From an uncultured delta proteobacterium (GTDB lineage: Bacteria > Desulfobacterota > BSN033 > UBA1163), in the NCBI GenBank assembly GCA_963827685.1, contig CAWHBU010000003.1, positions 1,024,001 to 1,088,000 of the forward strand: a DNA stretch of 64,000 nt, written 5' to 3'. This document shows, one piece after another, positions 598-41,795 of the stretch. The number at the start of each line of letters is the position of its first letter. Within the stretch, counting starts at the first letter, position 1. The translations under genes and the position numbers were made by a program. The notes below the pieces were generated by a model. The model was not told the origin of the DNA and searched no databases. It saw only the letters and a program-made list of their open reading frames with translations.

Positions 598-1995
598 TCA
601 TTCGATCGCCGGAACCGTGGGAGGCGTCTTGATAATCACATCCTTTTTCCATCCTCCCGAATAGTAATAAGCAAGACTGATCACCATCACAAAAAGAAAG
701 CTGAAAGCGACAGAAATCCAGATTCCTGTAATGCCTAAGCTCGTCTTTCGTGACAGAAACCACGAGCCCGGCACCCGGATGAACCATAAGGACAAGAGTG
801 AAAAGGTCATGGTGATGATTGTATGGCCTGCTCCATTGATTACGCCATTCGAAATAAACATAACGGCAAAAAAGATATAACAAGACCCCACAATTCGCAG
901 GTAACTGACGCCGATTCGCATGACCGCTAAGTCACCCGCAAGCCCAAACATCTTCAGAATAAGTTCAGAAAAGAAGACAGCAATCACCGAAATTAGAATG
1001 GTGATGCAAGAGATCATGATCACTCCCCACTTAAATATCTCTTTTACTCGGTCAGGTTTACGGGCCCCGAGATTTTGTCCTGTCAGGGCAGAAACGGCCA
1101 TACTCATCGATACGGCCGGCATCACGGCAAACATATCCACTCTGGCGACCGCGCCAAAGGCATTCGTGGCCGTACTGCCGAAGAAATTGACGAAGGTCGT
1201 GATAAACAATGCGCCAATCCAAACAAGCATCTGCTGAACAATCGAAGGAAGACCTATTTTAAAAATCATCGAAGACATGCGCCCGTCGAGAAGGAGCCTT
1301 TTGGGATGAAAGGCAACCAGGTGGCTCTTCCAGTTCAAATAGACGATGCTGATGATTAAAGCGGTCGCCTGGGATATCACACTTGCATAGGCCGCACCGT
1401 TCAGCCCGAGTTTTGGAAATGGACCAAACCCTCCTATCAGAAAAGGATCCAAAATGATGTTTAATCCTATGCCGGTGGCCATAAAAGCCAGGGGAGTTAA
1501 GGTGTCACCAATTCCCCTGAGTATTGAATTGATCAAAAGCCCCAGATAGAGCAGAACGAAACCTGCCAGACTGATTTTCAGATAGCTTGAAGCTAATGTG
1601 AAATTTTCGGGGGGCGTCCCCATCAGTCTTAAAACAGTATCGCTCGAAAAGATGCCGGCAATGGTCAAAGCTAATCCGAGAATGATGGAGAGTGAAAATG
1701 AGGTGTTGACGGCCTTTTCCACCATCTTGTAATCCTTTGCGCCATAGTACTGGGAGACAAGGATCGTGGTGGCCATGGTGATGCCCATTGAAAATCCGAC
1801 CAGTATAAAAAAGATAGGCAAGCTGACCCCTACTGCTCCAACAGCATTTTCTCCAACCAAATTTCCCACCCATATAGTATTGACGAGACTGTAACCGATC
1901 TGTATCAGGTTGCCTGAAAACATCGGAATGGTGTAGGACAGAAGATGTCTGGGAACACTCCCTACCGTTCGATCAATTCCAAATTGCTTCTCCAT
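598..1995 (-). CDS. MATE family efflux transporter
   Basis: 465 aa, about 12 TM segments; RGIGDT..P and NIILDP..I.G motifs. Confidence 0.92.
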   Translation of the reverse strand: MEKQFGIDRTVGSVPRHLLSYTIPMFSGNLIQIGYSLVNTIWVGNLVGENAVGAVGVSLPIFFILVGFSMGITMATTILVSQYYGAKDYKMVEKAVNTSFSLSIILGLALTIAGIFSSDTVLRLMGTPPENFTLASSYLKISLAGFVLLYLGLLINSILRGIGDTLTPLAFMATGIGLNIILDPFLIGGFGPFPKLGLNGAAYASVISQATALIISIVYLNWKSHLVAFHPKRLLLDGRMSSMIFKIGLPSIVQQMLVWIGALFITTFVNFFGSTATNAFGAVARVDMFAVMPAVSMSMAVSALTGQNLGARKPDRVKEIFKWGVIMISCITILISVIAVFFSELILKMFGLAGDLAVMRIGVSYLRIVGSCYIFFAVMFISNGVINGAGHTIITMTFSLLSLWFIRVPGSWFLSRKTSLGITGIWISVAFSFLFVMVISLAYYYSGGWKKDVIIKTPPTVPAIE

Positions 1996-2162
1996 CTCTT
2001 CTCCTTTTATAAGGTGTAAATTTAATATATTGCGGTATTAATCTCCAATCTGTTTTTGTAACGGTTTGAATCTCCAGGAAGGAAGAAAGGCTTTGGTTAC
2101 CCGGAAATATTTTACTGCTCTATCGATGGGGATATGATGTAAAAGCAAAAGGGGAGGATGTC

Positions 2163-2309
2163 TTGAATTTCTGCGATCTCATGTGCAAATATGCCGAAGC
2201 ACCGAAAGAAACCGCTGTGGATGGCGCCGGCAGCTGTAGAACCTTTGTAGCACTCTATTATTCACGCAAAAAATCACTGGATGTTTCTTTCAGTAATCGT
2301 TTATTCTAA
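2163..2309 (+). CDS. Small Cys-containing hypothetical protein, possibly degenerate at the C-terminus
   Basis: GGAGG RBS then TTG start; MNFCDLMCKYAEAPKETAVDGAGSCRTFVALYY... Confidence 0.45.
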   Translation: MNFCDLMCKYAEAPKETAVDGAGSCRTFVALYYSRKKSLDVSFSNRLF

Positions 2310-2499
2310 TCATCAGGGTGGATTGTAGATTTGTAAGTGAAGTTCTCATCCCTCTTTCTGAAGATAATTTCCTGTACTCAATAGAACGCCCTTCTTCCCT
2401 TCCAATGCAGATTTCAACCAGATATCTTCAATTTGAGCAAAGTGTGGGTATTGGCAAGCTATATAGAGACGAAGCCTTACCTAAGGTAAACAGGCTTCA

Positions 2500-2620
2500 T
2501 CTACAGTTTCATGTGGCAGGGAACGGAGAAGTGCTATGGTAAGCCTAAACGGGCACGAACTGGAAACGGCAGATACAGCCAAAGGAATACCTAAGGTAAC
2601 TGGCCATTCCTCGACCCTAC
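2500..2620 (+). mobile_element. Group II intron 3' remnant (partial domain V plus domain VI)
   Basis: ...CAGTTTCATGTGGCAGGGAACGG...GGTAAGCCTAAACGGGCACGAACTGGAAACGGCAGATACAGCCAAAGG...CCATTCCTCGACCCTAC resembles group II intron 3' ends; no RT ORF present. Confidence 0.6.
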
Positions 2621-2813
2621 AATAAAAAGTGAGGAAATTGCCAAGAAAGTTTGCAATTTTAAAAAAGGGCATGTTCCTTAATTAAATCGTACTGGGAAGG
2701 GCTTTTTCATGATATGAAAGATCTCCTTATCATTTCAATCTCCTTATCATTTCATTGACAGACCACAAGATAAAGGGTTAGATTGAATTGAAATCCAGTC
2801 AAGGAGGGAATGT

Positions 2814-3335
2814 ATGGAGGTAAAGGAATTCGTTCTGAAGGCCCTTGAACGCACGTCAGTGTTGCTCGCTAATGCTCTGAAAGATGTGAGGCCTGACGAA
2901 CTGAAGTGGCGGCCAGGTCCGCAGGCCAACTCGATTGGTTTTATCCTCTGGCATGTTACGCGGGCCGAGGACAGGTTCATTCACACGCTTATTCAACAGA
3001 AACCTCAGGTCTGGGAGCAGCCGAAGTGGCGCCAGTTGCTCCCTAACCTGCCGAGCGACCCTGCGGCAACCGGTGGTGGATTCACCAGCGACCAGGTGGG
3101 GGAATTCCAGACGCCAAAGCAGGAAGACCTGATGCAGTATAACCAGGCAGTGCGTGCCGCAACCGTCGACTTCCTCAAAGATCTGCCACAGAATGAGCTG
3201 AACAAGACGATTGATCATCCGAGGCTTGGTAAGATAACCTGTGCCGAGGTCATAGCTCTCCTACTCGGAGAAATCAACTCCCATATCGGGCAGATGGACT
3301 ATATTCGCGGTCTGGCACAAAGTCTCCGGAAATAG
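2814..3335 (+). CDS. DinB-family protein (thiol S-transferase-like)
   Basis: NSIGFILWH...ED near N-terminus; HIGQMDYIRG at C-terminus. Confidence 0.85.
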   Translation: MEVKEFVLKALERTSVLLANALKDVRPDELKWRPGPQANSIGFILWHVTRAEDRFIHTLIQQKPQVWEQPKWRQLLPNLPSDPAATGGGFTSDQVGEFQTPKQEDLMQYNQAVRAATVDFLKDLPQNELNKTIDHPRLGKITCAEVIALLLGEINSHIGQMDYIRGLAQSLRK

Positions 3336-3544
3336 GTGTCAGCTCTTAAGTGGAGTAACCGGAGATAAGTAGTGTAACCGTGTGAATTTTGGATAGATGA
3401 CCCAAAAATGTTTGTTTCTTCCACTAATCAATACCGCAATGATCCCCAATGCTCGTCGAATGGCCATTTTTGCATTGGCCTCAGTAAATATTACCAACAG
3501 AAAGCATGTTATTGTCTTTAATCTGATCGATAATGTGAAAAGCT

Positions 3545-3722
3545 GAAAGAGATCCTTATACGCATGGGCAGCAGTATAAACGCATCCTACGCCACTAACG
3601 TACTGGGCTACCCTCAAAGTCTCCACGATTTCTTCCTTTGTGGCACCAGCTTTCATCGCCTGCAGTGTCAACGCTTTTACCCCTTCAACGGTTCCGTGTG
3701 AGGCATCGAGGGCCATTGACAT
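3545..3722 (-). pseudogene. 5'-truncated carboxymuconolactone decarboxylase/AhpD-like fragment
   Basis: MALDASHG..EGVKAL..QAMKAGATKEEIVETLRVA matches the C-terminal half of the family; N-terminal half absent. Confidence 0.6.
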
Positions 3723-3883
3723 CGTAGGGATTGGTTCAAAAGGAGATTTGATCGAAATGCGAAAACCCTGCTATTTACAAGGATAGGATTATCGATTATG
3801 GTATGAAAGAAGCTCTCAGGAAAAGAGGCTGTAAATAACACGACTACTCTTCAAGGCAAGACAAGCTCAAGGGTGGGATTTGC

Positions 3884-4375
3884 GTGGAGGAGCCAATGCT
3901 TTTAACGGAACTACCATTTCATTTACGCGGTTCCATCTTCCGGAGCCCGATGCCTTTTTCGGTTTATGATCCTCAAGGAGATTCTCTTTTTCAATTCAGG
4001 AGAGAAAAGGGCTCCCTGATTGTTCTTCTTGCTGAAGAGGAAGAGTGTGTGATGAGGACTGGACTAAATTTGAAATCTCTCTATTTGAACCAGGGATCCC
4101 AGGTGCTTCATCTACCCATTCCCGATTTTAAGGTGCCTTCGAAAGAAGATCTTGAAGAAGCGATCAAGAAGACGGTCGAGCATGCACTAGTCGGAAATAA
4201 TATCTTAATCCACTGCCATGCTGGATTAGGAAGGACGGGGCTGTTTGTGGCTTATCTTGCAAAGCGGGTTCTCGGTTTATCGAGCGAAGAAGCGATTCAG
4301 TGAACGAGAAAATATATCCCTCACGCATTGGAAACTGATGAACAGAGCCAGATGGTCATCGATGATTTGGCATAA
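3884..4375 (+). pseudogene. PTP/dual-specificity phosphatase with internal TGA at 4301-4303
   Basis: HLPIPDF and HCHAGLGRTG (CX5R) motifs; frame continues after TGA as TRKYIPHALETDEQ, a family-like C-terminus, to TAA 4375. Confidence 0.8.
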
Positions 4376-4398
4376 AGAGAAGGTGCTGAATATCATTC

Positions 4399-5388
4399 AT
4401 GTCGAAATCAGATGACACGGTTACTTTGGAGAGTTTCGACAGCCTAACTTCCTATTGGCTCCAATCCGAGTCTCTTTTGATGTGGGACTGTATTTTTGTA
4501 TTGCCGCCGTGGCTCGAAGTTTGGTGGCATGATTTCGGATCCGAGGCCGAGCTATATTTGGGCGCTATCAGAAAAGACGGGACGATCGCTGGCATCGCTC
4601 CACTTTTATTACGGGGAACAGAGGCCTCTTTCATCGGCAGCACCGATCTTTGCGACTACCTGGACTTTGTTATTGTTCCGGGGAAAGAGGTTGGTTTTTT
4701 CAATATTTTGCTTGATGACCTGCAGGGGAGGGGCATCAGGCGGCTGAACTTGAGGCCATTGAGGCCCAATTCAACTGTGCTCACTTATCTTGTAGGTATT
4801 GCAAGGGATCGGAATTATGATGTCTCTCGTAAAGTGGAAGATGTTTCTCTGGAACTGGATTTACCTCCTACTTGGCAGGAATACTTAAATACATTGACCC
4901 CAAAACAGCGGCATGAAGTAAATCGCAAATTGAGACGATTGGGGGAAGCAGGTGAAGTCAATTACCGTGTAGTTGAAGATAGTGACTCTCTCTTAGATTC
5001 CATGGATCTCTTTCTGAGGTTGTTCCGGGAAAGTAGGGAGGATAAGGCGATTTTCTTAACGAATCGGATTGAATCCTTCTTTCAGTCGCTCGTAAAGGCT
5101 ACGGCCCGGTCGGGGCTTTTGAGGTTCGGCATCCTGGAACTCAACGCATCACCTGTAGCTGTGGTCATGTATTTTGATTACAACAACTCGGTTTTTCTTT
5201 ACAATAATGGTTATGATTCTAAACATAGCTTCTTAAGCGTAGGGTTAATTTCGAAGGTCTTATGCCTCAAAGACAGTGTTGAAAGAGGAAGGAGTAAATT
5301 TGACTTCTTGAAGGGAGCTGAAGAGTACAAATATCGCCTGGGAGGCAGGGAAGTTACTCTCTATGGATGCGAGATATCTTTTAAATGA
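4399..5388 (+). CDS. CelD/BcsL-type (Acetyltransf_6, FemAB-like) GNAT protein
   Basis: DLCDYLDF, LDLPPTWQEYL..L..KQRHEVNRKLRRL and FDFLKGAEEYKYRLG motifs. Confidence 0.85.
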   Translation: MSKSDDTVTLESFDSLTSYWLQSESLLMWDCIFVLPPWLEVWWHDFGSEAELYLGAIRKDGTIAGIAPLLLRGTEASFIGSTDLCDYLDFVIVPGKEVGFFNILLDDLQGRGIRRLNLRPLRPNSTVLTYLVGIARDRNYDVSRKVEDVSLELDLPPTWQEYLNTLTPKQRHEVNRKLRRLGEAGEVNYRVVEDSDSLLDSMDLFLRLFRESREDKAIFLTNRIESFFQSLVKATARSGLLRFGILELNASPVAVVMYFDYNNSVFLYNNGYDSKHSFLSVGLISKVLCLKDSVERGRSKFDFLKGAEEYKYRLGGREVTLYGCEISFK

Positions 5389-5412
5389 GCGGAAACTGGA
5401 CTGTAGGACAAG

Positions 5413-6693
5413 GTGTCGGACCGGCAAAAGTGGGGTTCGAATGGGAGCAGTGAATTGAAGATCGCGATGCTGAGCATTCACAGTTGCCCCTTGGGTAAGG
5501 TGGGCGAGGAAAATACAGGAGGGATGAGCGTCTATATCCGGGAGCTTGGCCGTGAACTCGGGAGACGGGGCCATCTCGTCGATGTGTATACACGCACCCA
5601 TGAGCCTATACACGATCAGGTAGTAGAATTAGGGGAGAATGCACGACTGATCCATTTCAAGGCAGGAGAGGAAGAAACGCACAAGTTGGAACTCTATTAT
5701 CATCTCGCCGATTTCACCCGCGACATCGAAAATTTCAGGAGAGAGAGTGGACTTCGGTATGATCTGATTCATAGCCATTATTGGCTTTCGGGCTTGGTTG
5801 GGGAAAGGCTGCAGGAGTTGTGGGACATTCCGCATCTTATCGGGTTCCATACCCTGGGGGCGGTCAAGAATGCAGTCGGTATCGGTGAGGGTGAACCCGA
5901 GCTTCGTATCAACGCCGAAAGGAAGCTAGTCAAAGATTGCCACCGCATTATTGCTTCTACGGAGAAAGGGAAAGAGGATCTCATCACCTATTACGATGCT
6001 GCCCCTGAGGCGATCAGCATTATTCCTTGCGGCGTGAATTTGGATCTGTTCCGACCCATCCAGAGAGAAACTGCACGATGCCATCTTGGTTTGAATGGCG
6101 AAAGCATCATCGTCTTTGTAGGAAGGATTATTCCACTTAAGGGCATAGACAGCATGTTAAAAGCTATGACCTATTTGGAAGGGAAGCAGGGAATCAAGTT
6201 TGTTGTGATCGGTGGCGACGATCATAGTCAGGCAGAAATGCAAAGGTTAAAGAACCTTTCACGGACCTTAAGGATCGACGAGTCAGTCATTTTTCTTGGC
6301 TCGGTAAAGCAGGAAACGTTACCCTTCTTTTACAGTGCTGCCGATTTATGTGTGGTCCCATCTTATTATGAAAGCTTTGGACTGGTGGTTTTGGAATCCC
6401 TGGCCTGCGGAACACCCGTCGTAGCCACGAAGGTTGGCTGTGCAGAAAGTGTTATCCGGTATGGTGAGACAGGATATGTCGTGACAGACAATGACCCTGG
6501 TAGTCTTGCAGATAAGATATCACGGTTGCTTTCAACGCCAAATGGGAACCCAGATTTTGTTCACTCGGTTCGGGCGTCCGTAGCTAAGTACAGCTGGTCA
6601 AATATCTCCGAAGCCATCCTTGAAGAATATCGCAGCATTCTATGGGATTTCTCTACTAAGGCATGCAAAGGAGTAGAAGAGTTCCGGGTTTGA
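5413..6693 (+). CDS. GT4 glycosyltransferase, MshA-like
   Basis: IAMLSIHSCPL....TGGMSVY, YDLIHSHYWLSG, FHTLG.VKN, PSYYESFGLV.LESLACGTPVV. Confidence 0.88.
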   Translation: MSDRQKWGSNGSSELKIAMLSIHSCPLGKVGEENTGGMSVYIRELGRELGRRGHLVDVYTRTHEPIHDQVVELGENARLIHFKAGEEETHKLELYYHLADFTRDIENFRRESGLRYDLIHSHYWLSGLVGERLQELWDIPHLIGFHTLGAVKNAVGIGEGEPELRINAERKLVKDCHRIIASTEKGKEDLITYYDAAPEAISIIPCGVNLDLFRPIQRETARCHLGLNGESIIVFVGRIIPLKGIDSMLKAMTYLEGKQGIKFVVIGGDDHSQAEMQRLKNLSRTLRIDESVIFLGSVKQETLPFFYSAADLCVVPSYYESFGLVVLESLACGTPVVATKVGCAESVIRYGETGYVVTDNDPGSLADKISRLLSTPNGNPDFVHSVRASVAKYSWSNISEAILEEYRSILWDFSTKACKGVEEFRV

Positions 6694-6724
6694 CAAGGCT
6701 CATCGACAGACAAACCGTACAGGC

Positions 6725-7657
6725 TCAATCCAGTCTCTTTTCGTACCACAGGCTGCTTTTCCAGAGCTCAAATCCAACCGACCTGTAAAGAGCACGGGCT
6801 GCTTTATTCTCACGATCCACCGTCAACACAGCAACTCGAAGACTCTTGCTCTTCAAATAGGAGAGCCCGGCAAGAAGAAGTTGCCTGCCCAAGCCTCTCC
6901 CGCGGTAATCTGGATCCACGCCCAGCATATAAATGCGGCCGGTCCCTTCGCCCGGGGCTTTCTTCTTCCAAAACTCAATCCTCGTCCAACAATAACCAAC
7001 GGGTTTATCTGAATCGAAGATCAAAAAAATGTCGTCCGGAGAGGAGTTGGGAAGATTGACTCGATAGGTGATCTCTTCGATCGTGTTGGGATTGAATCCC
7101 CAAGTGCCAGCGAAGGAACGGTTTTGAAGTTGCGTCAGTCTTCCTTCTTCGCCGGGCTGTAAGGAGCGACATCGGGAGGCAATCTTACTGATTTCGGGCA
7201 AAACCATCTCGGCGAGATCCAACCTGAGCTCGAGAAACCGGCGGACGAATGTAAAACCCATGCGGGTGAGAAACCGTTTAGCCGTGACGCTATCTTGAAA
7301 GATGTTTACATGGAGGGTCGTGATACCCAACTCTCTCGTACGGTCGACAGCGCAATTGACGAGCCTTCCGGTTAACTCTCCTCTGCGATGACGAGGATGG
7401 ACCAACCACCTCAAAACAGCCCGTCCGATGTTTAACTCCGGCTTCACGTCTGCATAGCCGGCAATTTCCCCTGACCTCTCTGCGATAAACAGGTTATCCT
7501 TAGAAGAAGGATCGGACTGACTCAGGCTTTCGAATAAGTCTAACGAGGAAAATAAGCAGTAGGGTCGCCCTAATTCCTGAACTTCAGTCAGCAGTTGGGC
7601 TAATTTCTCAAAATCCTTAGAATCATAATTTCGAATGGTATAAGTGAAATTCCTCAT
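6725..7657 (-). CDS. Tandem-GNAT acetyltransferase, mycothiol synthase MshD-like
   Basis: Two GNAT domains; GYCWT...GRIYMLGVDPDYRGRGLGRQLLLAGLSYL...LTVD.EN.AA..LY. Confidence 0.8.
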   Translation of the reverse strand: MRNFTYTIRNYDSKDFEKLAQLLTEVQELGRPYCLFSSLDLFESLSQSDPSSKDNLFIAERSGEIAGYADVKPELNIGRAVLRWLVHPRHRRGELTGRLVNCAVDRTRELGITTLHVNIFQDSVTAKRFLTRMGFTFVRRFLELRLDLAEMVLPEISKIASRCRSLQPGEEGRLTQLQNRSFAGTWGFNPNTIEEITYRVNLPNSSPDDIFLIFDSDKPVGYCWTRIEFWKKKAPGEGTGRIYMLGVDPDYRGRGLGRQLLLAGLSYLKSKSLRVAVLTVDRENKAARALYRSVGFELWKSSLWYEKRLD

Positions 7658-7742
7658 TTTCGACTGAAAAATCCGAGAGTAATTGTAACAACCGTTTTGA
7701 TATTATACAATTTTTACAATTTCACACAAAGGAGATAGACCC

Positions 7743-8440
7743 ATGAAAAAGAAGCTAGCTCAGGTGATGGTGGTTACTCCTCATCCAGATGATGCAGAAT
7801 ATGGAGTTGCCGGAACTGTCGTTCGCTGGGTCAACCAAGGGAAGGAAGTTGTATATGTAGTGTGCACCAATGGAGACAAAGGCACGAGCGATGCCCGCGT
7901 AAAGCCAGAAGAGCTAGCCAAAACTGGGAGGAGGAACAGATCGCTGCAGCCAACTTGCTGGGCGTGAGGGAGGTCATTTTCCTCCACCATCCCGATCAGG
8001 GCTTGGAAGATACCCCTGAGTTCCGTAAAGAGATCGTCCGCCTCATCAGGATGTATCGGCCTGAGACCGTTGTTACTGCTGATCCTTACCGACGCTATAT
8101 TTGGCACCGGGATCATAGAATGACCGGACAAGTTACCTTGGATGCCATCTTCCCCTATGCCAGGGATGTCTTTTCCTACCCGGATTTGACGAAAGAAGGG
8201 CTCGATCCTCATAAGGTCAAAGAGGTATTGCTCTGGGGAACTGAGGATGTCAATTACCGTTCCGATATCACCGAAACCTTTGATGTGAAGCTGAGCGCGC
8301 TGCAGTGTCACAAGAGTCAGGTAGGGCACATCCCGCTCCAGAAACTGGAAGGACGACTGAGGGAACGACATAGCTCATTAGCGCAGGGAGAAGAGTATGC
8401 GCTGGCAGAAGGCTTCCACCGGGTAGAGATATTATGGTAG
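7743..8440 (+). pseudogene. PIG-L family deacetylase (MshB/BshB-like), split by a 1-bp frameshift near 7925
   Basis: PHPDDAE and CTNGDKG in the first frame; EEEQ.AAA.LLGV, HRDH and HKSQ in the second frame. Confidence 0.82.
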
Positions 8441-8456
8441 GCCATTCAGCAAATGG

Positions 8457-9098
8457 TTAGGATGAAAGCCAAAGCACATCCCCGAACAGGTTAGGATCAT
8501 GCGGGCGGGAAGAAAAGACAGAAAATTCCTTCTTTTCTTTTCCCAGTAGAGTAGAATCGCCGTGGCCAGGGTATATCGCAGTATCATCAGGCAAGACAAA
8601 GATCTTGCTGGTTATTGATTCGATGATTAGCTTTAGATCAGCCGGTGACCTTGTCTTCCCTGGACCCCCAGGAAAGATAGTGTCACCTGCAATAAGACGG
8701 TTCCCGAATAAAAAGCACAAACTGCCAAGGGTGTGACCGGGCGTGTGAAGGACTTTCAAGCTTGTCTTTCCGAAAGGTACTTTTTCACCGTCTTCAAGGA
8801 GAATTTCCGGTCGAAGTGGCAGACCTTTCGCGTCCAAGCGATGAGCACCAATGGGAATCCTCAGCTTGGACTTTATCTCACTTAGTGCGCCAAGGTGATC
8901 CATATGGTTATGGGTTATTAATATGTATTTAGGATTAGTCTCTTCCAACGCCTTGAAGATCTTGAGGGCTTCTGCGGGAACATCCACCAACACACTGTCT
9001 CCAGTTAGGGGACAAGTCAATATGTAGCTGTTCGTGTCGAAGGGTCTTAATTTAAGTCGATCGATCTGAATGGTCTCATTTTTTGCTACGCGGTCCAC
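8457..9098 (-). CDS. MBL-fold metallo-hydrolase (glyoxalase II-like)
   Basis: THNHMDH, HTPGHT, GDTIF and PGHG motifs. Confidence 0.9.
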   Translation of the reverse strand: MDRVAKNETIQIDRLKLRPFDTNSYILTCPLTGDSVLVDVPAEALKIFKALEETNPKYILITHNHMDHLGALSEIKSKLRIPIGAHRLDAKGLPLRPEILLEDGEKVPFGKTSLKVLHTPGHTLGSLCFLFGNRLIAGDTIFPGGPGKTRSPADLKLIIESITSKIFVLPDDTAIYPGHGDSTLLGKEKKEFSVFSSRPHDPNLFGDVLWLSS

Positions 9099-9584
9099 TT
9101 GATTCCCTCAGAGAGATGATAAATTCTCTTTTTCAGTATATGTCGGGATCAATTTCGTATATCGATATCACATTAAGGAGAAAGTGTCCAAGGCAATTTT
9201 AGAATGCACGGAAAAAATTTCTAGAAAATCGCTGAGTGAAGGTTCATTTCAAAATAGAATTCTTTTTTGCATAAAATACAAGGTTCTCTTCCTTTTTGCA
9301 ATTGCTGCAAGTGTTGCTGTTGAGGCATTAGACGCGGAGTTACCATGTTTCTGACTGTGAGTTAAGACATCTTAGAACGCTCAATTTCTGCTATCTATCA
9401 TCTGTTTCCGATACTTCAAAAAACCCGCGATCTGATTTTCATATATTCACCTGGGATACCTGATTTCTACCAGTAATCCTCAACTCGAGATGACTGCGTA
9501 GGCTGAGGACTTGTAGGTGTAAGGAGCAGAGACTCGAGGAGCCGGATATCGGTCAAGCTTCGATAGAAACCTCACTTGAAAAAA

Positions 9585-10052
9585 TCAGATCTGTTTGGGT
9601 GGTAAGTTGTCTTGGCCTTCAACTTTCAAATCAGGGACGATCATCATCGTCGCTGTCCCATGGGCTAAGAGGTTTCCTTCTGCACTGTTGATGTAAGTCT
9701 CTCCCAGAGCCAAAGTCTTCCCTATCTTAATGCACCTCCCTTTTGCCACAAGCTTTCCCTTTTGAACCGGGGAAAGATAATTCACCTTAATCTCAACTGT
9801 AGTAAGCCCCATACCATCCTTTACTTGAGGGAAGACGGCCCAAAAGGCTGCTGCGTCCATGACAGAAGCGATGACACCTCCGTGGACATGGCCAAAAGGC
9901 TGGAGATGCTTTTCGTCCAGATCAATCTCCAAAACGGCGGTTCCCCATTCGAGGTCCTTTATCTCCATCGAGAGAAGTGAGAAATAGGGGGATCGGTTTA
10001 CAACCATGGATATAGCCTCTTTGTATTTCGGGTTTAATGAAAACTCAGACAT
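9585..10052 (-). CDS. PaaI-family thioesterase
   Basis: HLQPFGHVHGGVIASVMD and TTVEIKVNYL motifs. Confidence 0.9.
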   Translation of the reverse strand: MSEFSLNPKYKEAISMVVNRSPYFSLLSMEIKDLEWGTAVLEIDLDEKHLQPFGHVHGGVIASVMDAAAFWAVFPQVKDGMGLTTVEIKVNYLSPVQKGKLVAKGRCIKIGKTLALGETYINSAEGNLLAHGTATMMIVPDLKVEGQDNLPPKQI

Positions 10053-10121
10053 TATATTTTCTCCTCTTGATAATTGATAAGGGAAGCATGAAATAATTTA
10101 CACTTCGATCCGTCAGAAAAT

Positions 10122-10239
10122 GTCATTGCGAGCCCGAAGCCCTGCACCGTCCCGCGTTTCATGGGATACAGGGCGAAGGGTGTGGCAATCTCATCGTTTG
10201 CTTGAGATTGCTTCGTCGCTAAAGGCTCCTTGCAATGAC
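10122..10239. repeat. GTCATTGCG...GCAATGAC palindromic repeat with nested micro-element
   Basis: Terminal inverted repeats; related copies near 19096, 58253 and 62729. Confidence 0.8.
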
Positions 10240-10312
10240 CCACTGGGGGCCAATGCAAACTATAATGTGCTCCTAGTATAAATATTACAAAGCTTTTTGT
10301 GATTTTCATGAT

Positions 10313-11479
10313 TCAAACCGCGCGCAGCGACTCGACGATATTCATCCGCGATGCCCGGACCGCAGGCAACACGCCCCCGATAAAACCCATGACCAAGGAA
10401 AAACCGAGACCCTTCCAAACAATGTCCGGGGTTAAGGTGAAGCTGAAGGCGAGCTCGGAAAAGGTCTGAAAGTTCAAGGTGGAGATGGTGAAAAGCTGCA
10501 GAAAAGAAGCCAAAAAGAGACCGAGGCAACCACCGATCAACCCCAGAAACAAGGCTTCCACAATAAAAGCCCCCAGGATGCTAACTTTCTTGAAGCCCAG
10601 GGCGCGCATGGTTCCGATTTCGCCTGTGCGCGTGGCCACTGCCGAATACATGGTGATCATGGCACCGATGATAGCGCCCAGGGAGAAGATGACGGTCAAT
10701 GCCGTCCCGAGAATACGAAGAAATTGTGCCATTCTTTCGGATTGTTCCGCGTAGTAACGATTCTCACGCTTTGCCTCCAACGTCAAACGTGGATCGTCTT
10801 CGATCCGTTTCTTCACTCTTTCAAACTCGGAAGGATCGCGCAGCTTGAAGATGACGGATGAGTAGACCGTCCTGCGAAAGGCCTGCATGAGCTGATCTGC
10901 ATCCCCCCAGATCTCTGAACTGAACCCCCTGTTGCCCGCATCGAAGATCCCGACGATCCTCCAGTCCCGCATTCCGAAGCGGAGGATTTCGCCGATGCCA
11001 CCCCCTTTAAATCGCTCAGCAATGCTTCGGCCGGCGATGATCTCCGATAGTCCTGGCTTCGGCATACGCCCGTCTACCAATCTCACCTGCGGTCGCAATG
11101 CGAGTGAGCTCGCACCAATTCCTCTGATCACCACATTGGAGAGTGCATTCGTCCCCCGTTTGGGAAGAGCGATGAGGACAACCATCTCTTTTGCAAGGAG
11201 CACCTGACCCTCTGCCCCTGTCGCCACTTCAGGCTGCGTTTCTACAATAGAAGCTTGTAGTCGAGAAACCCCGCTCATCACTTCGGATGTAGAACCTTTT
11301 CGGACCACCACGACGTTATCATACGAACCCGTCTCAACAAGTGTCTTCCGGAGCCCTTCGGCCAGCATGAGAATGGCAGCAAACACGAATACGACGAGGG
11401 CCATGCCCGATGCAGTGAGCACAGTGGTCAATCGGCGCGTCCAGAGGTTACGGAAACTGTATGAGATGGGAAGTCCCAC
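10313..11479 (-). CDS. ABC transporter permease (FtsX/MacB-like)
   Basis: RTGEIGTMRALGF motif; 4-TM MacB topology. Confidence 0.9.
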   Translation of the reverse strand: MGLPISYSFRNLWTRRLTTVLTASGMALVVFVFAAILMLAEGLRKTLVETGSYDNVVVVRKGSTSEVMSGVSRLQASIVETQPEVATGAEGQVLLAKEMVVLIALPKRGTNALSNVVIRGIGASSLALRPQVRLVDGRMPKPGLSEIIAGRSIAERFKGGGIGEILRFGMRDWRIVGIFDAGNRGFSSEIWGDADQLMQAFRRTVYSSVIFKLRDPSEFERVKKRIEDDPRLTLEAKRENRYYAEQSERMAQFLRILGTALTVIFSLGAIIGAMITMYSAVATRTGEIGTMRALGFKKVSILGAFIVEALFLGLIGGCLGLFLASFLQLFTISTLNFQTFSELAFSFTLTPDIVWKGLGFSLVMGFIGGVLPAVRASRMNIVESLRAV

Positions 11480-12637
11480 CTACCCGATCCTCCTCAGCCC
11501 ATCGGCGATGCGGATTTTTAGAGCACGCCAGGTCGGAATGATGGCTGCGAAAAGACCAACCAGAACGGAGGCTGCAACATCCATATAAATGGTGTCAATC
11601 TCCACCTTAAAGGTTGGAAAGTAGGCACCCACAATCTTGCTAAACTCTTTTGCTGCGGGAGGGGTTAAGGCGATCCCTACGAGGCAGCCGATCATGGTGA
11701 TGAGAAGAGATTCCCCGATGATCATGCCGGCGATACGCCAGCCCCTAAAACCCAGAGTTTTGAAGATGGCATATTCTCCAATCCGTTCCCGAGCGGTCAT
11801 CGCCATGGTGTTTGCAGCCACTGCGATAATGATAATGATCACTACGAAGGAGACCATCTGGATGGCGACAATGATGGCATCTGCCATGGAGATAAAGGAG
11901 AGAAAGAAAGCTTTTTCGGTTTCGGTGAGCGTCTCAGCCAGTGAATTCTTAAAGGTCTTGTCGATCGCCTGAGCCACTTCCGCCGCACGATTCGGATCCG
12001 TGACTTCGACGATGTACCAGCCCACCTGATCCGCACGGCGAGGGGCCGTCTTTTTCAGCGCCTCATTCAGGTAGTCCCAGTGGAAAAAGAAGACCCTTTC
12101 ATCCGTACTTTCGTCTCTTCCGTGGTATATGCCTCGGAGGACAAACTCCCAGTTGCCTGGAAAGACGGCACTTTTCAATACAACAATGTCCCCGATTCCC
12201 CAATGGTATCGCTCCACAAGTTTCCGTCCTGCAACACACCCTTTCCGATCCCGAAGAAAGGCCTCTTTTTGATCCGGAGGCAGCACGAATTCCGGGTATA
12301 ATGCCACGTAGTTTTTTGCTTCGATGGCGTAATTGGCAAAAAAATTCTTTTCGTCTTTGTACGTCCCTGCAAACCAGTTCCCGTAAGATATCCGCTTTAC
12401 CGCATCGATCTGGCGAATCTTATCCTTATAGGAAAGGGGGAGTGGAAAGATGAGGGATATGGCATTTCGGGTGATGAGACGGTTTGCCGAAGAGGCCTTG
12501 ACGCCTGCATACCAGGCGCCGATGAAGGTCCTAAGCAGCCCAAAGGCAAGAATGGCGATGGTGATACTTAGAATGGTCAGGGCGGTACGGAGCTTATGGC
12601 GAAAGGTATTTCTAAGGAGCAGCTTGAGAATGTACAT
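11480..12637 (-). CDS. ABC transporter permease (FtsX/MacB-like)
   Basis: RERIGEYAIFKTLGF motif; periplasmic domain. Confidence 0.9.
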   Translation of the reverse strand: MYILKLLLRNTFRHKLRTALTILSITIAILAFGLLRTFIGAWYAGVKASSANRLITRNAISLIFPLPLSYKDKIRQIDAVKRISYGNWFAGTYKDEKNFFANYAIEAKNYVALYPEFVLPPDQKEAFLRDRKGCVAGRKLVERYHWGIGDIVVLKSAVFPGNWEFVLRGIYHGRDESTDERVFFFHWDYLNEALKKTAPRRADQVGWYIVEVTDPNRAAEVAQAIDKTFKNSLAETLTETEKAFFLSFISMADAIIVAIQMVSFVVIIIIIAVAANTMAMTARERIGEYAIFKTLGFRGWRIAGMIIGESLLITMIGCLVGIALTPPAAKEFSKIVGAYFPTFKVEIDTIYMDVAASVLVGLFAAIIPTWRALKIRIADGLRRIG

Positions 12638-13316
12638 TGTTCAAGACACCTTTATCGAGATAACGGATCGTATGCGCCTTCTTCGCTGCCCGAGGGTCGT
12701 GGGTCACCATGATAATGGTTTTATGTGAATCACGGTTGAGCTGATCCATCAGACCGAGAATCTCCTCGGCAGATACCCGGTCGAGGTCTCCTGTCGGTTC
12801 ATCCGCTACCAAGATGGTCGGGTCAGTGACAATGGCGCGGGCAATGGCAACTCGCTGCTGCTCTCCTCCGGAGAGCTGCCCAGGGTAGTGATCTATTCGA
12901 CTCGCCAGATTGACGACTTGGAGCGCCAGCCCCACATGCTCGCGTCGCTCTCTACGAGATAGACCGGTAAGCAATAGAGGAAGCTCAACGTTCTCGAAGG
13001 CCGTCAAAACCGGGATGAGATTGTAGAACTGGAAGATGAAACCGACGTTGACCGATCGCCACGCAGCCAGTTCAGTTTCTGTGAGCCCTGTGATATCGAT
13101 GCCCCCTACCCTGATGATACCGTTATCCACCTGGTCAAGGGCAGCGATCAGGTTAAGCAGGGTACTCTTTCCTGAACCCGACGGTCCCATCAATGCGAGG
13201 AATTCCCCTTCTGCGATTTCGAGGGTGATATTCTCCAGCACGGGGATAATGTGGGTACCCCTGCGGTAGGATTTGTTCACATGCTCTATCTCGACAATCG
13301 GTGCTTTGCTTTCCAT
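12612..13316 (-). CDS. ABC transporter ATP-binding protein (LolD/MacB-like)
   Basis: [17 protein letters not shown] and ADEPTGDLD motifs. Confidence 0.95.
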
Positions 13317-14534
13317 TTACTTCTCTTCTATTTTAATCTTTGAGCCATTCCTCAATCGATCCGAAGGATTCAGCACGACCCGGTCTCCAACGTTCACACC
13401 TTCAAGGATTTCTACCATGTCACCCATCGGGCCCCCGAGGCTTACAGGGGTTTCGACCACCCTGTCCCCATTGACGAGAAAGACGACCTTCCTGTCTTTT
13501 CGATTCACCAGGGCCGTCCGATTAAGAGCGGTTCGCGGCTTCCCTTCTTCTGCCTTTACCGAACGGGAGAGAAAAGCAACCTTGGCTGACATCTCCGGCA
13601 ATATGCGGCTGTCTTTATCAATGAAACGAACCTTAACCATGACGGTCGCCTTGCTCCGGTCAGCGGTCGGTACAATCATGTGAATCTCACCACGGAAGCG
13701 CAGTTCCGGCAGAGCATCCAACTGAATCTCGCATGGCTGGCCAGGCCTGACCTGGCTCAGATTCGATTCCGAGACATCCGCCTCCACCTCGAGAGAGCTC
13801 ATATCGGCAATGGTGACCACAGAGGCCTTGGCATTGGCTGCTGCGCCAAGGGGGGTGACGATATCCCCTACATCAGCGTCCTTGGTCAAGACGACCGCGT
13901 CAAAGGGGGCGCGGATCAGCGTATATTCCAGCAAGGCCGCCGCGCCTTCCAGAGCAGCGGTACTCGCCTTCAATGCAGCCTCTGCCCCAGCAACGGCAGC
14001 GACCGCTTTATCGTAACGGGCGACGGCATCATCATAGGTTTGTTGGGCAACCACTCCCCGAGAGAGAAGTTCTTTGTTACGGTTGAGCGAGAGCGTTGCA
14101 TCACGAAGCTCGGCCCGGGCCTGTTCAAGGCTGAAACGGGCCACGTTGACAGTGGCTGCCGCCTGATCCTTGGCTGCACTGACATCCTGATTCTCGAGAC
14201 GGGCAACCACCTGGTCCTTTTTTACACGGCTTCCCTCTTCAACGCCCAGCCAGATGAGGCGTCCGGTTACCTTGGATGCCAAGGCTGACTTGCGTTGGGC
14301 AACCACATAACCGCTTGCGTTAAGCAACGTGAAGGCTTGAGACGGGTAGACCTGTGTGATCGTGGCAACCTGGACTCCGATGGCCGGTGTGAAGGTTCCT
14401 CTGACATAAAGCAAACCGAGGATGATGAGGGCGATCACTGCCAAAGTCCAGTAGATGAACTTCTTCCTCTTTCTCGGGCGAAAAACCACCTTGGACTTAT
14501 CTATCTTCAGTTTTAAAAGGTCTTCATTTGCCAT
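13317..14534 (-). CDS. Efflux periplasmic adaptor (MacA-like MFP)
   Basis: N-terminal TM, lipoyl halves, coiled coil, IRAPFD motif. Confidence 0.9.
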   Translation of the reverse strand: MANEDLLKLKIDKSKVVFRPRKRKKFIYWTLAVIALIILGLLYVRGTFTPAIGVQVATITQVYPSQAFTLLNASGYVVAQRKSALASKVTGRLIWLGVEEGSRVKKDQVVARLENQDVSAAKDQAAATVNVARFSLEQARAELRDATLSLNRNKELLSRGVVAQQTYDDAVARYDKAVAAVAGAEAALKASTAALEGAAALLEYTLIRAPFDAVVLTKDADVGDIVTPLGAAANAKASVVTIADMSSLEVEADVSESNLSQVRPGQPCEIQLDALPELRFRGEIHMIVPTADRSKATVMVKVRFIDKDSRILPEMSAKVAFLSRSVKAEEGKPRTALNRTALVNRKDRKVVFLVNGDRVVETPVSLGGPMGDMVEILEGVNVGDRVVLNPSDRLRNGSKIKIEEK

Positions 14535-14847: not shown

Positions 14848-15432
14848 ATGAAGATTCTTAATCGGAACTTTTTCTTCGGTGTGGGTGCAGGAGTTTTGAT
14901 CACAATCCTTATGATCGTGGTCGCAGGTTATCTGTTCGTATGGTGGTATTCCAGCAATAAGATACCGAATGGTGAAGAAATATTGGAAAGGAGTCTGGAG
15001 GCTCCCCCTTTCCCTTCAGCCGTCTTGGCTGACTATAACTGGACCATTCAATCCCTCAAGGGACAAGATGTCAAAATGGCCGATGCAAAAGGGAAAGTCG
15101 TATTTCTCAATTTCTGGGCCACCTGGTGTTCTCCTTGCATCGCGGAAATGCCAAGTATTCAAAGACTTCATGAAAGGTTAAAAAACGAAGGGCTTGTTTT
15201 CATCTGTATTTCAGATGAAGAGACGACTAAAGTCAGTCGGTTTGCCAGAGAAAAGGGGTTCACCTTTCCGATCTATACCATGCATGGCCCGCCACCGGCC
15301 GCTTTCAGATCGCGAGGTATCCCCGCCACATTCATACTATCTCCGGATGGGAAAATAGCCTTTAAACATGTTGGCAGTGCAAAATGGGATGACGAAAAAA
15401 GTATCGCTTTTATAAAAAGTCTCATGAAATAG
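14848..15432 (+). CDS. TlpA-family membrane-anchored thiol-disulfide oxidoreductase
   Basis: N-terminal TM; FLNFWATWCSPCIAEMP; IPATF. Confidence 0.9.
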   Translation: MKILNRNFFFGVGAGVLITILMIVVAGYLFVWWYSSNKIPNGEEILERSLEAPPFPSAVLADYNWTIQSLKGQDVKMADAKGKVVFLNFWATWCSPCIAEMPSIQRLHERLKNEGLVFICISDEETTKVSRFAREKGFTFPIYTMHGPPPAAFRSRGIPATFILSPDGKIAFKHVGSAKWDDEKSIAFIKSLMK

Positions 15433-19610: not shown

Positions 19611-21122
19611 TTACGATGCCGTCGCTTTGGCCCTTTCCTCATGGGACATCTTAGCCAAGCGCTCTACCTCCTTTAGGTCCAGCTTCAGCCCTTCGGCCAC
19701 GCGGCGGCCATAGTCCGGGTCAGCCTTGTAGAAAAGAGCGGTTTGCCGTAACTGGATCCGTTTCTGTGCCTTACCCAGATGATCCACAATATTCCCAACG
19801 AGGTTTTTGCGATCCTGTTCCTTCATGACATCGCGATACAAATTGCCAGGCTGTACGAAATCATCATTAGGATATGTGAAATTGTAACGCCCTGCTTGCC
19901 CGGAAAGCTCAAAGGGAGGCTCGCCTGTCTTCGGGTCCGGCGCTGGCCCACCGAAGCTATTTGGCCAGTAATTGGGCCCAGCACCCCCATTGGCGTCGAC
20001 ACGCATGAACCCATCTCGCTGGTAGCTATTTTCAGGGGCGTGTTTGGGCGCATTGATAGGAATCAGATGGTAGTTCGGTCCCAAGCGGTGGATATGGGTA
20101 TCGTGATAGGAAAAAACCCTGGCTTGCAGCATCTTGTCCGGTGAAATGCCAATCCCCGGTACCAAGTTGCCTGGACTGAAAGCGGCCTGCTCCACTTCTG
20201 CAAAATAATTGACCGGGTTGCGGTTCAGTACCAACTTGCCAATTTTGATAGGCGGAACCTCTCCATGGGGCCAAACCTTGGTAATATCAAAGATGTCCCA
20301 TGGGAAATTTTTCGCCTTTTCCGGTGTCAGGATTTGCATCTCAAGTGTCCAGGAAGGGTAATTGCCACGCTCGATGGCATCATACAGGTCACGGGTGGCG
20401 TGATTTGAATCTTCACCTGAGATACGCGTTGCTTCCTCCCGGGTAAGGTTCTTAATGCCCTGATCCGTCTTGAAGTGATACTGCACCCAGAAATACTCGC
20501 CCTTGTCGTTATACCATTTATAGGTGTGGCTACTGTAGCCATTCATATTACGAAAGGTGGCGGGCGTACCTCTATCGGAGAAGAGAATGGTGACCTGGTG
20601 GATTGATTCCGGCGTCAAGGACAGGAAGTCCCAAAACATGTTTGGGTCTGGTAAATTCGTGGATGGGTGACGCTTTTGTGTATGGATGAAGTCAGGAAAC
20701 TTGAGCGGATCCCGGATGAAGAAGACCGGGGTGTTATTGCCGGCAAGGTCGTAATTGCCTTCCTCCGTATAGAATTTCAGCGCGAAACCGCGCGGGTCTC
20801 GAGCTGCATCGGCTGAACCCTTTTCACCGCCAACGGTGGAAAAGCGGGCGAAGGCCTCGGTCCGCTTGCCGACTTTCGAAAGAAATTTCGCTTTAGTGTA
20901 TTTTGTCACGTCAGCCGTCACCTCAAAATAACCATGCGCCCCCGCACCCTTGGCGTGCACTACCCGTTCGGGAATGCGCTCTCTGTCGAAGTGACCCAGC
21001 TTCTCCAACAGGTGAACGTCCTGTATCAGGACAGGCCCGCGTTCTCCAGCGGTTAGACTGTTCTGATCATCACCCACAGGAATTCCAAAAGCAGTTGTTA
21101 ACCTCTTTTTTTCATTTGCCAT
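19611..21122 (-). CDS. katA: Monofunctional heme catalase
   Basis: [38 protein letters not shown]. Confidence 0.97.
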
Positions 21123-24911: not shown

Positions 24912-24937
24912 CGCTATTTCCTCCTATCGCTTCCAAT

Positions 24938-27945: not shown

Positions 27946-27959
27946 AGTCGACTCTTCAA

Positions 27960-29531: not shown

Positions 29532-29535
29532 TCTC

Positions 29536-34929: not shown

Positions 34930-34953
34930 CCCGTTATTTTGCTGCATGATTTT

Positions 34954-41770: not shown

Positions 41771-41795
41771 AGGTTCCTAAACCATGAGATCTAAG

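Follow-up and report, generated by a model that had tools for sequence, protein, structure and literature searches.

Gene content of the locus

The window analysed here is a 64,000-nucleotide stretch of contig CAWHBU010000003.1 from an uncultured delta proteobacterium of peat/wetland type. Between positions 2814 and 9098 it carries a gene cluster that may encode a mycothiol-type low-molecular-weight thiol pathway, in which a FemX-like tandem GNAT would take the place of the cysteine ligase MshC. Gene calls were based on a listing of open reading frames (ORFs) and on Pfam and NCBIfam profile scans of the window proteins. The scans confirmed all the genes and coordinates of an earlier reading made from the sequence alone, referred to below as the original prediction. 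The FemX-like tandem GNAT (4399–5388, + strand; 329 aa; PF13480, 103 bits) is followed by an MshA-like GT4 glycosyltransferase (5413–6693, +; TIGR03449, 333 bits), an MshD-like tandem GNAT on the opposite strand (6725–7657, −; TIGR03448, 109.8 bits), a PIG-L/LmbE-family deacetylase of BshB1- or MshB-like type in two frames (7743–8440, +; PF02585, E 1.4e-15) and a GloB-like hydrolase of the metallo-beta-lactamase (MBL) fold (8457–9098, −; PF00753, E 1.6e-18). Upstream of the GNAT lie a gene for a DinB/mycothiol S-transferase (MST)-like protein (2814–3335, +; PF12867, E 6.7e-17; PF04978 MST, 42.6 bits), an ORF with part of a CMD (AhpD-like) domain (3339–3722, −; PF02627, 25.5 bits) and a gene for a small dual-specificity/protein tyrosine phosphatase (DSP/PTP)-type phosphatase with a CX5R motif (3884–4303, +; PF22785, E 7.7e-12, with matches to other DSP/PTP families too). 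No hydrophobic segment was found in any cluster protein.

The GT4 scored 333 bits against the NCBIfam model of MshA (cut-off 462.5) and 107.9 bits against that of BshA (cut-off 273.7), and its best match in the PDB was the MshA of Corynebacterium glutamicum (CgMshA; E 7.8e-71). In a pairwise alignment the residues corresponding to K78, Y110, H133, T134 and R154 of CgMshA were all identical; we take these to be the phosphate- and inositol-binding residues of that enzyme. The probable reaction of the GT4 is thus the coupling of UDP-N-acetylglucosamine (UDP-GlcNAc) with an acceptor that bears a phosphate, inositol 1-phosphate being the likeliest. The MshD-like protein matched TIGR03448 over profile positions 12–294 of 294 (cut-off 163.1 bits), and its best PDB match was the mycothiol synthase MshD of Mycobacterium tuberculosis (2c27, E 5.9e-14). 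Its translation carries a canonical acetyl-coenzyme A (acetyl-CoA) motif, RGRGLG, and it is proposed to be the N-acetyltransferase of the added amino acid.

The PIG-L gene is split into frames 7743–7921 and 7925–8440 by a one-base frameshift near 7925, so that the deacetylase of the original prediction is present by family, though in this assembly not as an intact gene. The N-terminal part carries a PHPDD motif in one frame and the C-terminal part an HRDH motif in another. The C-terminal fragment, the only part scanned, belongs to the family by its PF02585 score (58.4 bits, cut-off 28.2); its nearest model was BshB1 at 63 bits (cut-off 182.5), with MshB TIGR03445 at 19.8 bits (cut-off 224). 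In contigs from all three other runs that cover the site (95–99% identical to the window), one extra base behind 7925 keeps the frame open; the closest run, X1, had no contig over 7864–7925. Of the related loci, 19 contain both halves of the gene, and all 19 keep it in frame. A second gene of the window (23392–24923, −), for an FAD-dependent pyridine-nucleotide-disulfide oxidoreductase (FAD disulfide reductase), is frameshifted as well, with its break near 24474–24507 (NF004991 scores 248 bits with the N-terminal piece and 604 bits with the C-terminal one; the protein carries a CxxxxC motif). In related metagenome-assembled genomes (MAGs) the phosphatase (L004:7488–7902) and the GNAT (L029:8001–8986) each align in two frames, which suggests that indel errors occur in those assemblies too. 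Because the relatives and the three runs are in frame, and because of these other split genes, we lean towards an assembly indel in PIG-L.

If the frameshift were real, the pathway would be decaying in this genome and would yield no final product here, which is compatible with any other reading of the cluster. The window does lack one base that every covering metagenome contig and every comparable related locus has, and the closest run has no cover at the site. The second frameshifted gene in the window and the split DSP (L004) and split GNAT (L029) of related assemblies form a pattern expected of assembly indels, however, and the remaining cluster genes are all intact, so that we consider decay very unlikely. 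The FAD disulfide reductase could itself serve a thiol system, but the model that fits it best is that of a generic MerA-like subfamily.

Conservation of the cluster

Scanning species-representative genomes for the GNAT produced 26 loci, with 27 of 72 pattern matches confirmed. The gene content of these loci was scored by tblastn with the window's proteins. The loci come from Thermodesulfobacteriota or 'delta proteobacterium' MAGs, from Syntrophorhabdus and from Dehalococcoidia/Chloroflexota, and their GNATs are 47% to 96% identical to that of the window. The GT4 lies directly after the GNAT in 25 of the 26 loci, the contig of the 26th stopping 152 b past the GNAT. PIG-L was found in 21; three of the five loci that lack it are cut by contig ends, and the other two (L011, L013) have no PIG-L within 6.7 kb. 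An MshD-like gene on the opposite strand was present in 17 loci and an MBL gene in 12, four of these in Dehalococcoidia/Chloroflexota. The GNAT is accordingly the gene most tightly tied to the GT4, ahead of both PIG-L and the MshD-like gene. Six loci with room for more genes beside the GT4 contain the GNAT, GT4 and PIG-L but no MshD-like gene. The mixed-strand gene order is retained across phyla and the clustering is far beyond chance. Because the genes flanking the cluster on the outside vary from locus to locus, the conserved unit is GNAT-GT4-PIG-L, often together with the MshD-like and MBL genes. The DinB and phosphatase genes, which the original prediction had listed as clustered with the others, accompany this unit in the closest relatives only.

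Two wider samples were examined. In the window's class, an MshA-like GT4 is present in 16 of 68 genomes, in all 16 next to the GNAT. The GNAT ortholog itself is patchy in this class: 13 of the 68 genomes have it at 496 bits or more and four genomes of family f3 at 236–248 bits, and besides these there is one broken copy and one match to a weak paralog. The second sample consisted of 151 Dehalococcoidia genomes, evenly sampled and at least 80% complete; the GNAT was found in 100, an MshA-like GT4 in 119 and both in 94. In 89 of these 94 the two genes are adjacent, with a gap of at most 396 b (median 53 b). The GNAT-GT4 pair is hence a common trait in Dehalococcoidia and patchy in the window's lineage, and, as the original prediction would have it, synteny of the GNAT with the GT4, PIG-L and MshD-like genes is kept in three lineages, Thermodesulfobacteriota, Syntrophorhabdus and Dehalococcoidia. 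The MshA cut-off of TIGR03449 was exceeded by no match in the 68 genomes of the window's class or in the 151 Dehalococcoidia.

Among the accessory members, the DinB protein passes the cut-off of PF04978 (27 bits) but not that of the mycothiol S-transferase model NF047843 MST_Rv0443 (109 bits, cut-off 170). Its gene is accessory and accompanies the cluster in 4 of the 26 loci; a DinB-family gene also stands beside the cluster in loci L011 and L014, which with the window makes three separate lineages. The phosphatase (CX5R motif HCHAGLGRTG) is linked in 6 loci, all from Thermodesulfobacteriota or Syntrophorhabdus, and is weakly similar to PTP-like inositol phosphatases (PF14566, 21.5 bits, cut-off 27; XopH, 19.9 bits). 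It is a candidate for the dephosphorylation step that follows the glycosyltransferase, a role like that of MshA2. The GloB-like hydrolase carries the HxHxDH motif as THNHMDH and matches TIGR03413 at 83.5 bits (cut-off 200.8) over profile positions 13–164 of 248, with no match to the model's C-terminal part; it is a candidate thiol-ester hydrolase. Membership of the CMD ORF in the system is doubtful: its residues 2–54 align to positions 29–81 of the 84 of PF02627, i.e. to a partial domain, it has Cys-x-x-Thr in place of CxxC, and it is linked in 3 of the 26 loci.

A transglutaminase-like gene (cysteine-protease fold) was observed upstream of the GNAT in two related loci, directly in L019 (1607–2398) and at about 1.3 kb in L013 (5922–6581).

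Fold and motifs of the FemX-like GNAT

The GNAT belongs to a large family, in which 1,400 cluster representatives at 50% identity match at E 1e-30 or better under generic automatic names such as 'GNAT family N-acetyltransferase' and 'BioF2-like'. An AlphaFold (AF2) model was built from 22 orthologs and reached a predicted local distance difference test score (pLDDT) of 94.8 and a predicted template modelling score (pTM) of 0.90. The top Foldseek matches of this model were the FemX of Weissella viridescens (E 3.6e-12), FemX and FemA of Staphylococcus aureus, aminoacyl-phosphatidylglycerol synthases of the MprF type, and Sbb17/Sba18. A structure search independent of Foldseek covered all 48,161 representative chains; its ranks 1–9 (Z 16.7–20.9, root-mean-square deviation (rmsd) 3.4–4.0 Å) were taken by FemX, FemA, Sbb17, L-PGS and MprF, together with 2hqy, whose function is unknown. 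The scores included Z 20.9 for 6snr (rmsd 4.0 Å, 292 residues aligned), 20.8 for 1lrz, 19.5 for 9wqx and 19.4 for 4ii9. Tandem GNATs that use acyl-CoA, among them MAB_4324, a glucosamine N-acetyltransferase, the clavulanate GNAT, VipF and MshD, reached at most Z 14.7 in the same search, with rmsd 5.1–7.0 Å, and a second fold comparison gave the same order. Over both comparisons, the full-length matches with Z of at least 16.7 have rmsd 3.3–4.1 Å, and the acyl-CoA tandem GNATs have Z 13.5–15.0 and rmsd 4.7–7.0 Å. The GNAT thus has the double-GNAT fold of the Fem/MprF type, with Z values above those of all acyl-CoA tandem GNATs, at a sequence identity to the solved Fem-type enzymes of only 11–15%.

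FemX-type enzymes are double GNATs in which the acceptor stem of the tRNA is bound by a positively charged helix of domain 2, and their key residue is a Lys that follows a Phe, Lys305 in FemX and Lys329 in DhpH-C (PMC12945691). In the GNAT, the helix at the start of domain 2 (residues 167–184) is basic, with a net charge of +2 to +6 in 22 of 22 orthologs. This is not a global property, as the median isoelectric point of the whole protein is 5.5 and only this helix is basic. The pair Y310-K311 is invariant in the same 22 orthologs and may be compared with F304-K305 of FemX and F328-K329 of DhpH-C. The CoA-binding motif Q/RxxGxG/A is not conserved in domain 2; its sole recurrent site, at alignment column 44 (10 of 22 orthologs), lies in the N-terminal helix. 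Fold, basic helix, Tyr-Lys pair and missing CoA motif agree with a tRNA-dependent enzyme, although they are no proof of one.

A precedent for the chemistry comes from enzymes that act on streptothrisamine, among them the structural matches Sbb17 and Sba18. In streptothrisamine, the acceptor of aminoacylation is the amine of the sugar. Sbb17 and Sba18 were crystallised with this amino sugar, as the titles of their PDB entries state, and tRNA-dependent aminoacylation of it is documented for the related Orf11, which turns streptothrisamine into glycylthricin with Gly-tRNA (PMC12945691). Compared with these and the other FemABX-type enzymes, the GNAT has the double-GNAT fold (Z 19.3–20.9 over about 275–290 residues), the basic helix that opens domain 2 and an aromatic-Lys pair near the C terminus that may correspond to theirs. 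It differs from them in its low identity and in belonging to PF13480 instead of PF02388, in its proposed acceptor, a glucosaminyl-inositol of primary metabolism, and in its proposed donor, Cys-tRNA, which none of VlmA, DhpH-C, PacB, Orf11 and FemX uses (PMC12945691). The MprF-type aminoacyl-phosphatidylglycerol synthases (DUF2156) share with the GNAT a tandem-GNAT catalytic domain that depends on aminoacyl-tRNA (Z 16.7–19.1). MprF, however, is fused to a membrane flippase and acts on lipid, while the GNAT is soluble. We propose that the GNAT is an aminoacyl-tRNA-dependent ligase that would acylate the free amine of a glucosaminide, i.e. carry out the step of MshC.

The GNAT could instead be an acyl-CoA-dependent N-acyltransferase, which is the foremost alternative. 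Deacetylation by PIG-L would then be followed by re-acylation, after the logic of LpxC and LpxD, and the product would be a non-thiol N-acyl-glucosaminyl-inositol serving as a solute or as the head group of a glycolipid. The protein is a member of the GNAT superfamily, PF13480 is named as an acetyltransferase domain, and BspF, a PF13480-type relative in NCBIfam (33.6 bits to the GNAT), is annotated as an acyl-CoA (crotonyl) transferase. The acyl-CoA tandem GNATs, glucosamine N-acetyltransferases among them, are also clear structural matches, and the complementarity with MshC described below shows that the same step is done but not which group is added. This reading is nonetheless unlikely, considering that the full-length matches at Z of at least 16.7 are all aminoacyl-tRNA-dependent or of unknown function and superpose more closely than the acyl-CoA enzymes, that domain 2 lacks the conserved CoA motif seen in the MshD-like neighbour, that this adjoining N-acetyltransferase implies a free amine on the product, that the linked MST-like and GloB-like genes indicate thiol chemistry, and that the cluster proteins are without membrane segments.

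Thiol genes in the host genome

The host genome (5.23 Mb in 14 contigs; 94.5% complete, 8% contamination) was searched for known thiol pathways. The original prediction had noted that the window lacks an MshC or BshC ligase, and this holds for the whole genome: no MshC (TIGR03447, cut-off 485.1 bits) was found in the window or elsewhere, the best match to the model (306 bits) being an intact ordinary cysteinyl-tRNA synthetase (CysRS; cysS, 584.6 bits), and a search for BshC at an E threshold of 0.001 found nothing in either. GshA, a GCS2-type ligase and GshB were likewise not found in the genome. It contains one tRNA-Cys, the one intact CysRS and an ino1 gene on contig C6 (PF01658, 124 bits); ino1 was also present in five of five other cluster-bearing genomes, none of which had an MshC above the cut-off or a BshC. 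Because MshC, BshC, GshA, GCS2 and GshB are missing from it, the cluster would stand alone as a candidate for a dedicated low-molecular-weight thiol among the pathways searched in this incomplete genome.

Complementarity with MshC-like paralogs

Matches to the MshC/CysRS model were counted in the Dehalococcoidia sample at E 1e-30 or better, where a count of at least two may include split genes. At least two matches were found in 27 of the 29 genomes with an MshA-like GT4 but no adjacent GNAT, in 21 of the 89 genomes with an adjacent GNAT, and in 2 of the 32 genomes without an MshA-like GT4. For the split between GNAT and MshC-like gene a Fisher p of 2e-11 results, which is not a real probability because the genomes are related. 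The two exceptions among the GNAT-less genomes carry the weakest GT4 scores (222–224 bits). Three second CysRS-like copies that were sampled are 393–399 aa long and have no anticodon-binding part, scoring 367–390 bits with MshC and 355–410 bits with cysS; a CysRS-like protein without the anticodon-binding part is the architecture of MshC. Nearly every MshA-like GT4 in Dehalococcoidia thus has as its companion a linked GNAT or an MshC-like paralog, or the two together.

The relationship between the GT4s was examined in a quick maximum likelihood tree of 64 sequences, none left out, with support from the Shimodaira-Hasegawa-like approximate likelihood ratio test (SH-aLRT) only. GT4s with and without an adjacent GNAT interleave on this tree, with at least five state changes among 57 MshA-like rows, and because of this the GT4 backbone has swapped its partner, GNAT or MshC-like, repeatedly, as is expected if both do the same job. 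The window's GT4 falls in a clade of Thermodesulfobacteriota and Syntrophorhabdus (SH-aLRT 95) amid Dehalococcoidia sequences; no direction of transfer is claimed.

The counts also bear on the possibility that cysteine is ligated by the housekeeping CysRS, by a truncated CysRS-like paralog or by an unrecognised ligase, the GNAT being an accessory enzyme, for example for a further modification of the thiol. In 21 of the 89 Dehalococcoidia genomes a second CysRS-like gene occurs together with a linked GNAT. In the window's class a different, truncated CysRS-like paralog is found in 13 of the 68 genomes and is enriched with the cluster: 8 of the 16 genomes that have the cluster carry it, but only 5 of the 52 that do not. 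Two such paralogs (L034:496–1716 in G031 and L035:516–1739 in G064) are 406–407 aa long and score 313–317 bits with cysS and 186–192 bits with MshC. On the other hand, 68 of the 89 Dehalococcoidia genomes with a linked GNAT have one or no CysRS-like match, and a single match is all that is seen in 8 of the 16 genomes of the window's class that bear the cluster; the window's own genome (14 contigs), in which no truncated paralog was found, is one of these eight. Since the GNAT is in addition tied to the GT4 more tightly than PIG-L or the MshD-like gene, there is only a slim chance that another ligase does this step.

The profiling bears out the original prediction in part. The GNAT and mshC are largely complementary in Dehalococcoidia, and an MshC elsewhere that co-occurs with the cluster, which would speak against the GNAT as ligase, is absent from this genome; the MshC-like and truncated CysRS-like genes of the other genomes above do co-occur with it.

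As a separate observation, G002 (the genome of locus L013) and eight other sampled Dehalococcoidia gave no MshC/CysRS match at E 1e-30, and G002 gave none at E 1e-10. These nine genomes may be without a class-I CysRS, or their CysRS may have been missed by the search.

Proposed pathway

From the gene content, its linkage, the fold class of the GNAT and its distribution we infer a cytoplasmic route to a mycothiol-type thiol, including the use of tRNA, cysteine as the amino acid, the substrates and the order of the steps. Ino1, encoded elsewhere in the genome, would supply inositol 1-phosphate, to which the MshA-like GT4 would add GlcNAc from UDP-GlcNAc; that the acceptor is phosphorylated is argued from the identity of the GT4 residues to the presumed phosphate-contact set of CgMshA. 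The homologous sucrose-phosphate synthase holds the phosphate of its substrate via Arg105 and Arg178 (PMC7264703). The CX5R phosphatase would then take off the phosphate, a task that in Dehalococcoidia would fall to an unlinked phosphatase, and PIG-L would strip the N-acetyl group to leave a free glucosamine amine. In place of the ATP-dependent MshC, the FemX-like GNAT would move an amino acid onto this amine; the likeliest one is cysteine, taken from Cys-tRNA(Cys) that the ordinary CysRS has charged. The product would be an aminoacyl-glucosaminyl-inositol. Where its gene is present, the MshD-like GNAT would acetylate the new alpha-amine with acetyl-CoA. Users of the thiol would be the DinB/MST-like protein, for S-conjugation, and the GloB-like hydrolase, for hydrolysis of thioesters.

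The main argument for an amino acid as the added group is that the adjacent MshD-like N-acetyltransferase needs a free amine. Cysteine is indicated by the alternation with MshC-like paralogs, by the MST-like DinB genes of the window, L011 and L014, and by the GloB-like hydrolase in both phyla. That the GNAT, GT4 and PIG-L act on one glucosaminide, with the GNAT doing the step of MshC, is considerably more likely than the full reading with tRNA and cysteine. For the latter, with MshC's step taken by a Fem-type enzyme that depends on tRNA and adds cysteine, we would put the chance slightly short of even. A broader form of the proposal is that ligation of cysteine from Cys-tRNA(Cys) to glucosaminyl-inositol by a Fem-type enzyme gives an MshC-free mycothiol, or a non-acetylated form of it, and that this serves most Dehalococcoidia, and some Thermodesulfobacteriota of peat and wetland, as their main low-molecular-weight thiol. 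This we regard as possible, with the balance tilted somewhat against it.

The GNAT may also be aminoacyl-tRNA-dependent and yet add Gly, Ala, Ser or another amino acid that is not cysteine, in which case an N-acetyl-aminoacyl-glucosaminide would serve as a compatible solute or building block and would have no role as a redox thiol. VlmA, DhpH-C, PacB, Orf11 and FemX use Ser, Leu, Ala or Gly, and none of these enzymes is given as using Cys (PMC12945691); moreover, the DinB gene is linked in only 4 and the MBL gene in only 12 of the 26 loci. Against this are set the alternation of the GNAT with paralogs of MshC-like cysteine ligases on one GT4 backbone, the presence of MST-like DinB genes by the cluster in three lineages, the retention of the GloB-like hydrolase in both phyla, and a host genome without any of the other dedicated thiol pathways searched, and a non-cysteine product is consequently rather improbable.

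The known systems nearest to the proposed route include mycothiol biosynthesis, whose order of steps, as given in a pathway figure legend (PMC2628429), is the same as the one proposed for the cluster. The actinobacterial pathway comprises Ino1, MshA, MshA2, MshB, MshC and MshD. The nearest solved relatives of the GT4 and of the MshD-like GNAT are both mycothiol enzymes (CgMshA and the M. tuberculosis MshD), and a PIG-L/LmbE deacetylase, an MST-like DinB protein and a genomic ino1 are found in the host as well. The cluster differs in having no MshC and a FemX-like tandem GNAT beside the GT4, in a deacetylase closer to BshB1 than to MshB, and in its hosts, which are Thermodesulfobacteriota, Syntrophorhabdus and Dehalococcoidia. 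It differs also in that the genes are clustered, the msh genes of Actinobacteria being dispersed, and in the CX5R phosphatase that is linked in some loci; we know of no gene assigned to MshA2. With bacillithiol (BshA, BshB, BshC) the cluster has in common a three-gene core of GT4, PIG-L deacetylase and a third enzyme, and the six MshD-less GNAT-GT4-PIG-L loci would likewise leave a free amine. Unlike that pathway, the host genome has no BshC, the GT4 lies below the BshA cut-off, and its presumed phosphate-contact residues suggest a phosphorylated acceptor instead of malate.

Several observations weigh against the proposed tRNA- and cysteine-dependent route. Every Msh/Bsh match of the window proteins lies below the NCBI equivalog cut-off in the NCBIfam scan, so that by NCBI criteria these proteins are best described as relatives of the enzymes and not as members. 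The GNAT falls in PF13480; it gave no match to PF02388 (FemAB) in the Pfam scan and scored 15.9 bits with PF04339 FemAB_like (cut-off 27), and compared by sequence with solved structures it gave nothing significant, the best E being 0.64 for the single sequence and 0.21 for a profile. Its K311 is 18 residues away from the aligned C-terminal end and K305 of FemX 20 residues, and the two resemble each other by this distance only. No fused or longer forms of the GNAT were found at E 1e-20 or better, which is weak evidence. The annotation of BspF belongs here too. The GT4 is nearly as similar to its second PDB match, the sucrose-phosphate synthase of the cyanobacterium Thermosynechococcus elongatus (E 1.7e-65), as to MshA, which leaves its donor and acceptor not fixed. 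The split PIG-L gene, the linkage of the DinB, phosphatase and CMD genes in the closest relatives only, and the incomplete complementarity with MshC-like and truncated CysRS-like paralogs point the same way. The presence of ino1 is uninformative, since it occurs in 55 of the 68 genomes of the window's class with or without the cluster. No tRNA gene lies near the cluster in the window region, and among the 26 loci only L017 has tRNA genes (Thr/Tyr/Thr) downstream. Finally, the genomes compared share kinship, and the proportions given above are not independent trials.

Taken with the synteny, the fold and the complementarity, and set against the co-occurring MshC-like paralogs, the mycothiol analogue with the GNAT as Cys-tRNA ligase that the original prediction put forward is partly supported. 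The cluster probably represents a mycothiol/bacillithiol-type pathway with a non-orthologous ligase, and that ligase is probably tRNA-dependent. No account of such a pathway was found in open-access papers and bioRxiv under mycothiol with Dehalococcoidia, Chloroflexi or Chloroflexota, FemX, aminoacyl-tRNA, or Cys-tRNA/GNAT. Reviews treat mycothiol-type thiols as a trait of Actinobacteria. Here an MshA-like GT4 occurs in 119 of the 151 sampled Dehalococcoidia and is paired with the GNAT in 89. If true, the proposal would identify the redox buffer of a group that is large, matters in the environment, is mostly uncultured and counts organohalide respirers among its members, and it would add a new, tRNA-dependent way of forming the amide bond in a thiol cofactor. 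It would be the first thiol-cofactor pathway to draw on the translation machinery, with the first FemX-type enzyme to use Cys-tRNA, and the linked CX5R phosphatase would be the first gene-level candidate for the MshA2 step. Thousands of proteins now called 'GNAT family N-acetyltransferase' could then be re-annotated.

Surroundings of the cluster

A scan of 1900–9700 for promoters and terminators gave no useful excess over shuffled controls, no Rfam family reached its gathering score in the window, and the stretch 1990–2820 upstream of the cluster holds short ORFs only. Directly adjoining the cluster on its other side, at 9585–14534 (−), are a hotdog-fold thioesterase (9585–10052) and a MacAB-type ABC exporter, made up of two FtsX/MacB permeases, an ATPase and an HlyD-type adaptor. 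Neither the thioesterase nor the exporter was found beside the cluster in the related loci examined.

Further along, 14848–35049 is a neighbourhood of oxidative-stress and NADPH-supply genes. It contains a TlpA/ResA-like thiol-disulfide oxidoreductase (14848–15432), a catalase (19611–21122), a PerR-like regulator of the Fur family (21290–21706), a DedA/VTT protein (22416–23114), an ArsS-like radical SAM protein (24938–25894; TIGR04167, 428 bits) and a complete oxidative pentose-phosphate operon (27205–35049). As context for a thiol, these genes are circumstantial. The remainder of the window includes a bacterial alpha-2-macroglobulin of 1896 aa beside a PBP1C-type penicillin-binding protein, a classic pair (39650–47563, −), an rve-family transposase/integrase (48701–50647), an Mrr-type restriction endonuclease (51071–51829) and a HepT/MNT (nucleotidyltransferase) toxin-antitoxin pair (61731–62643).

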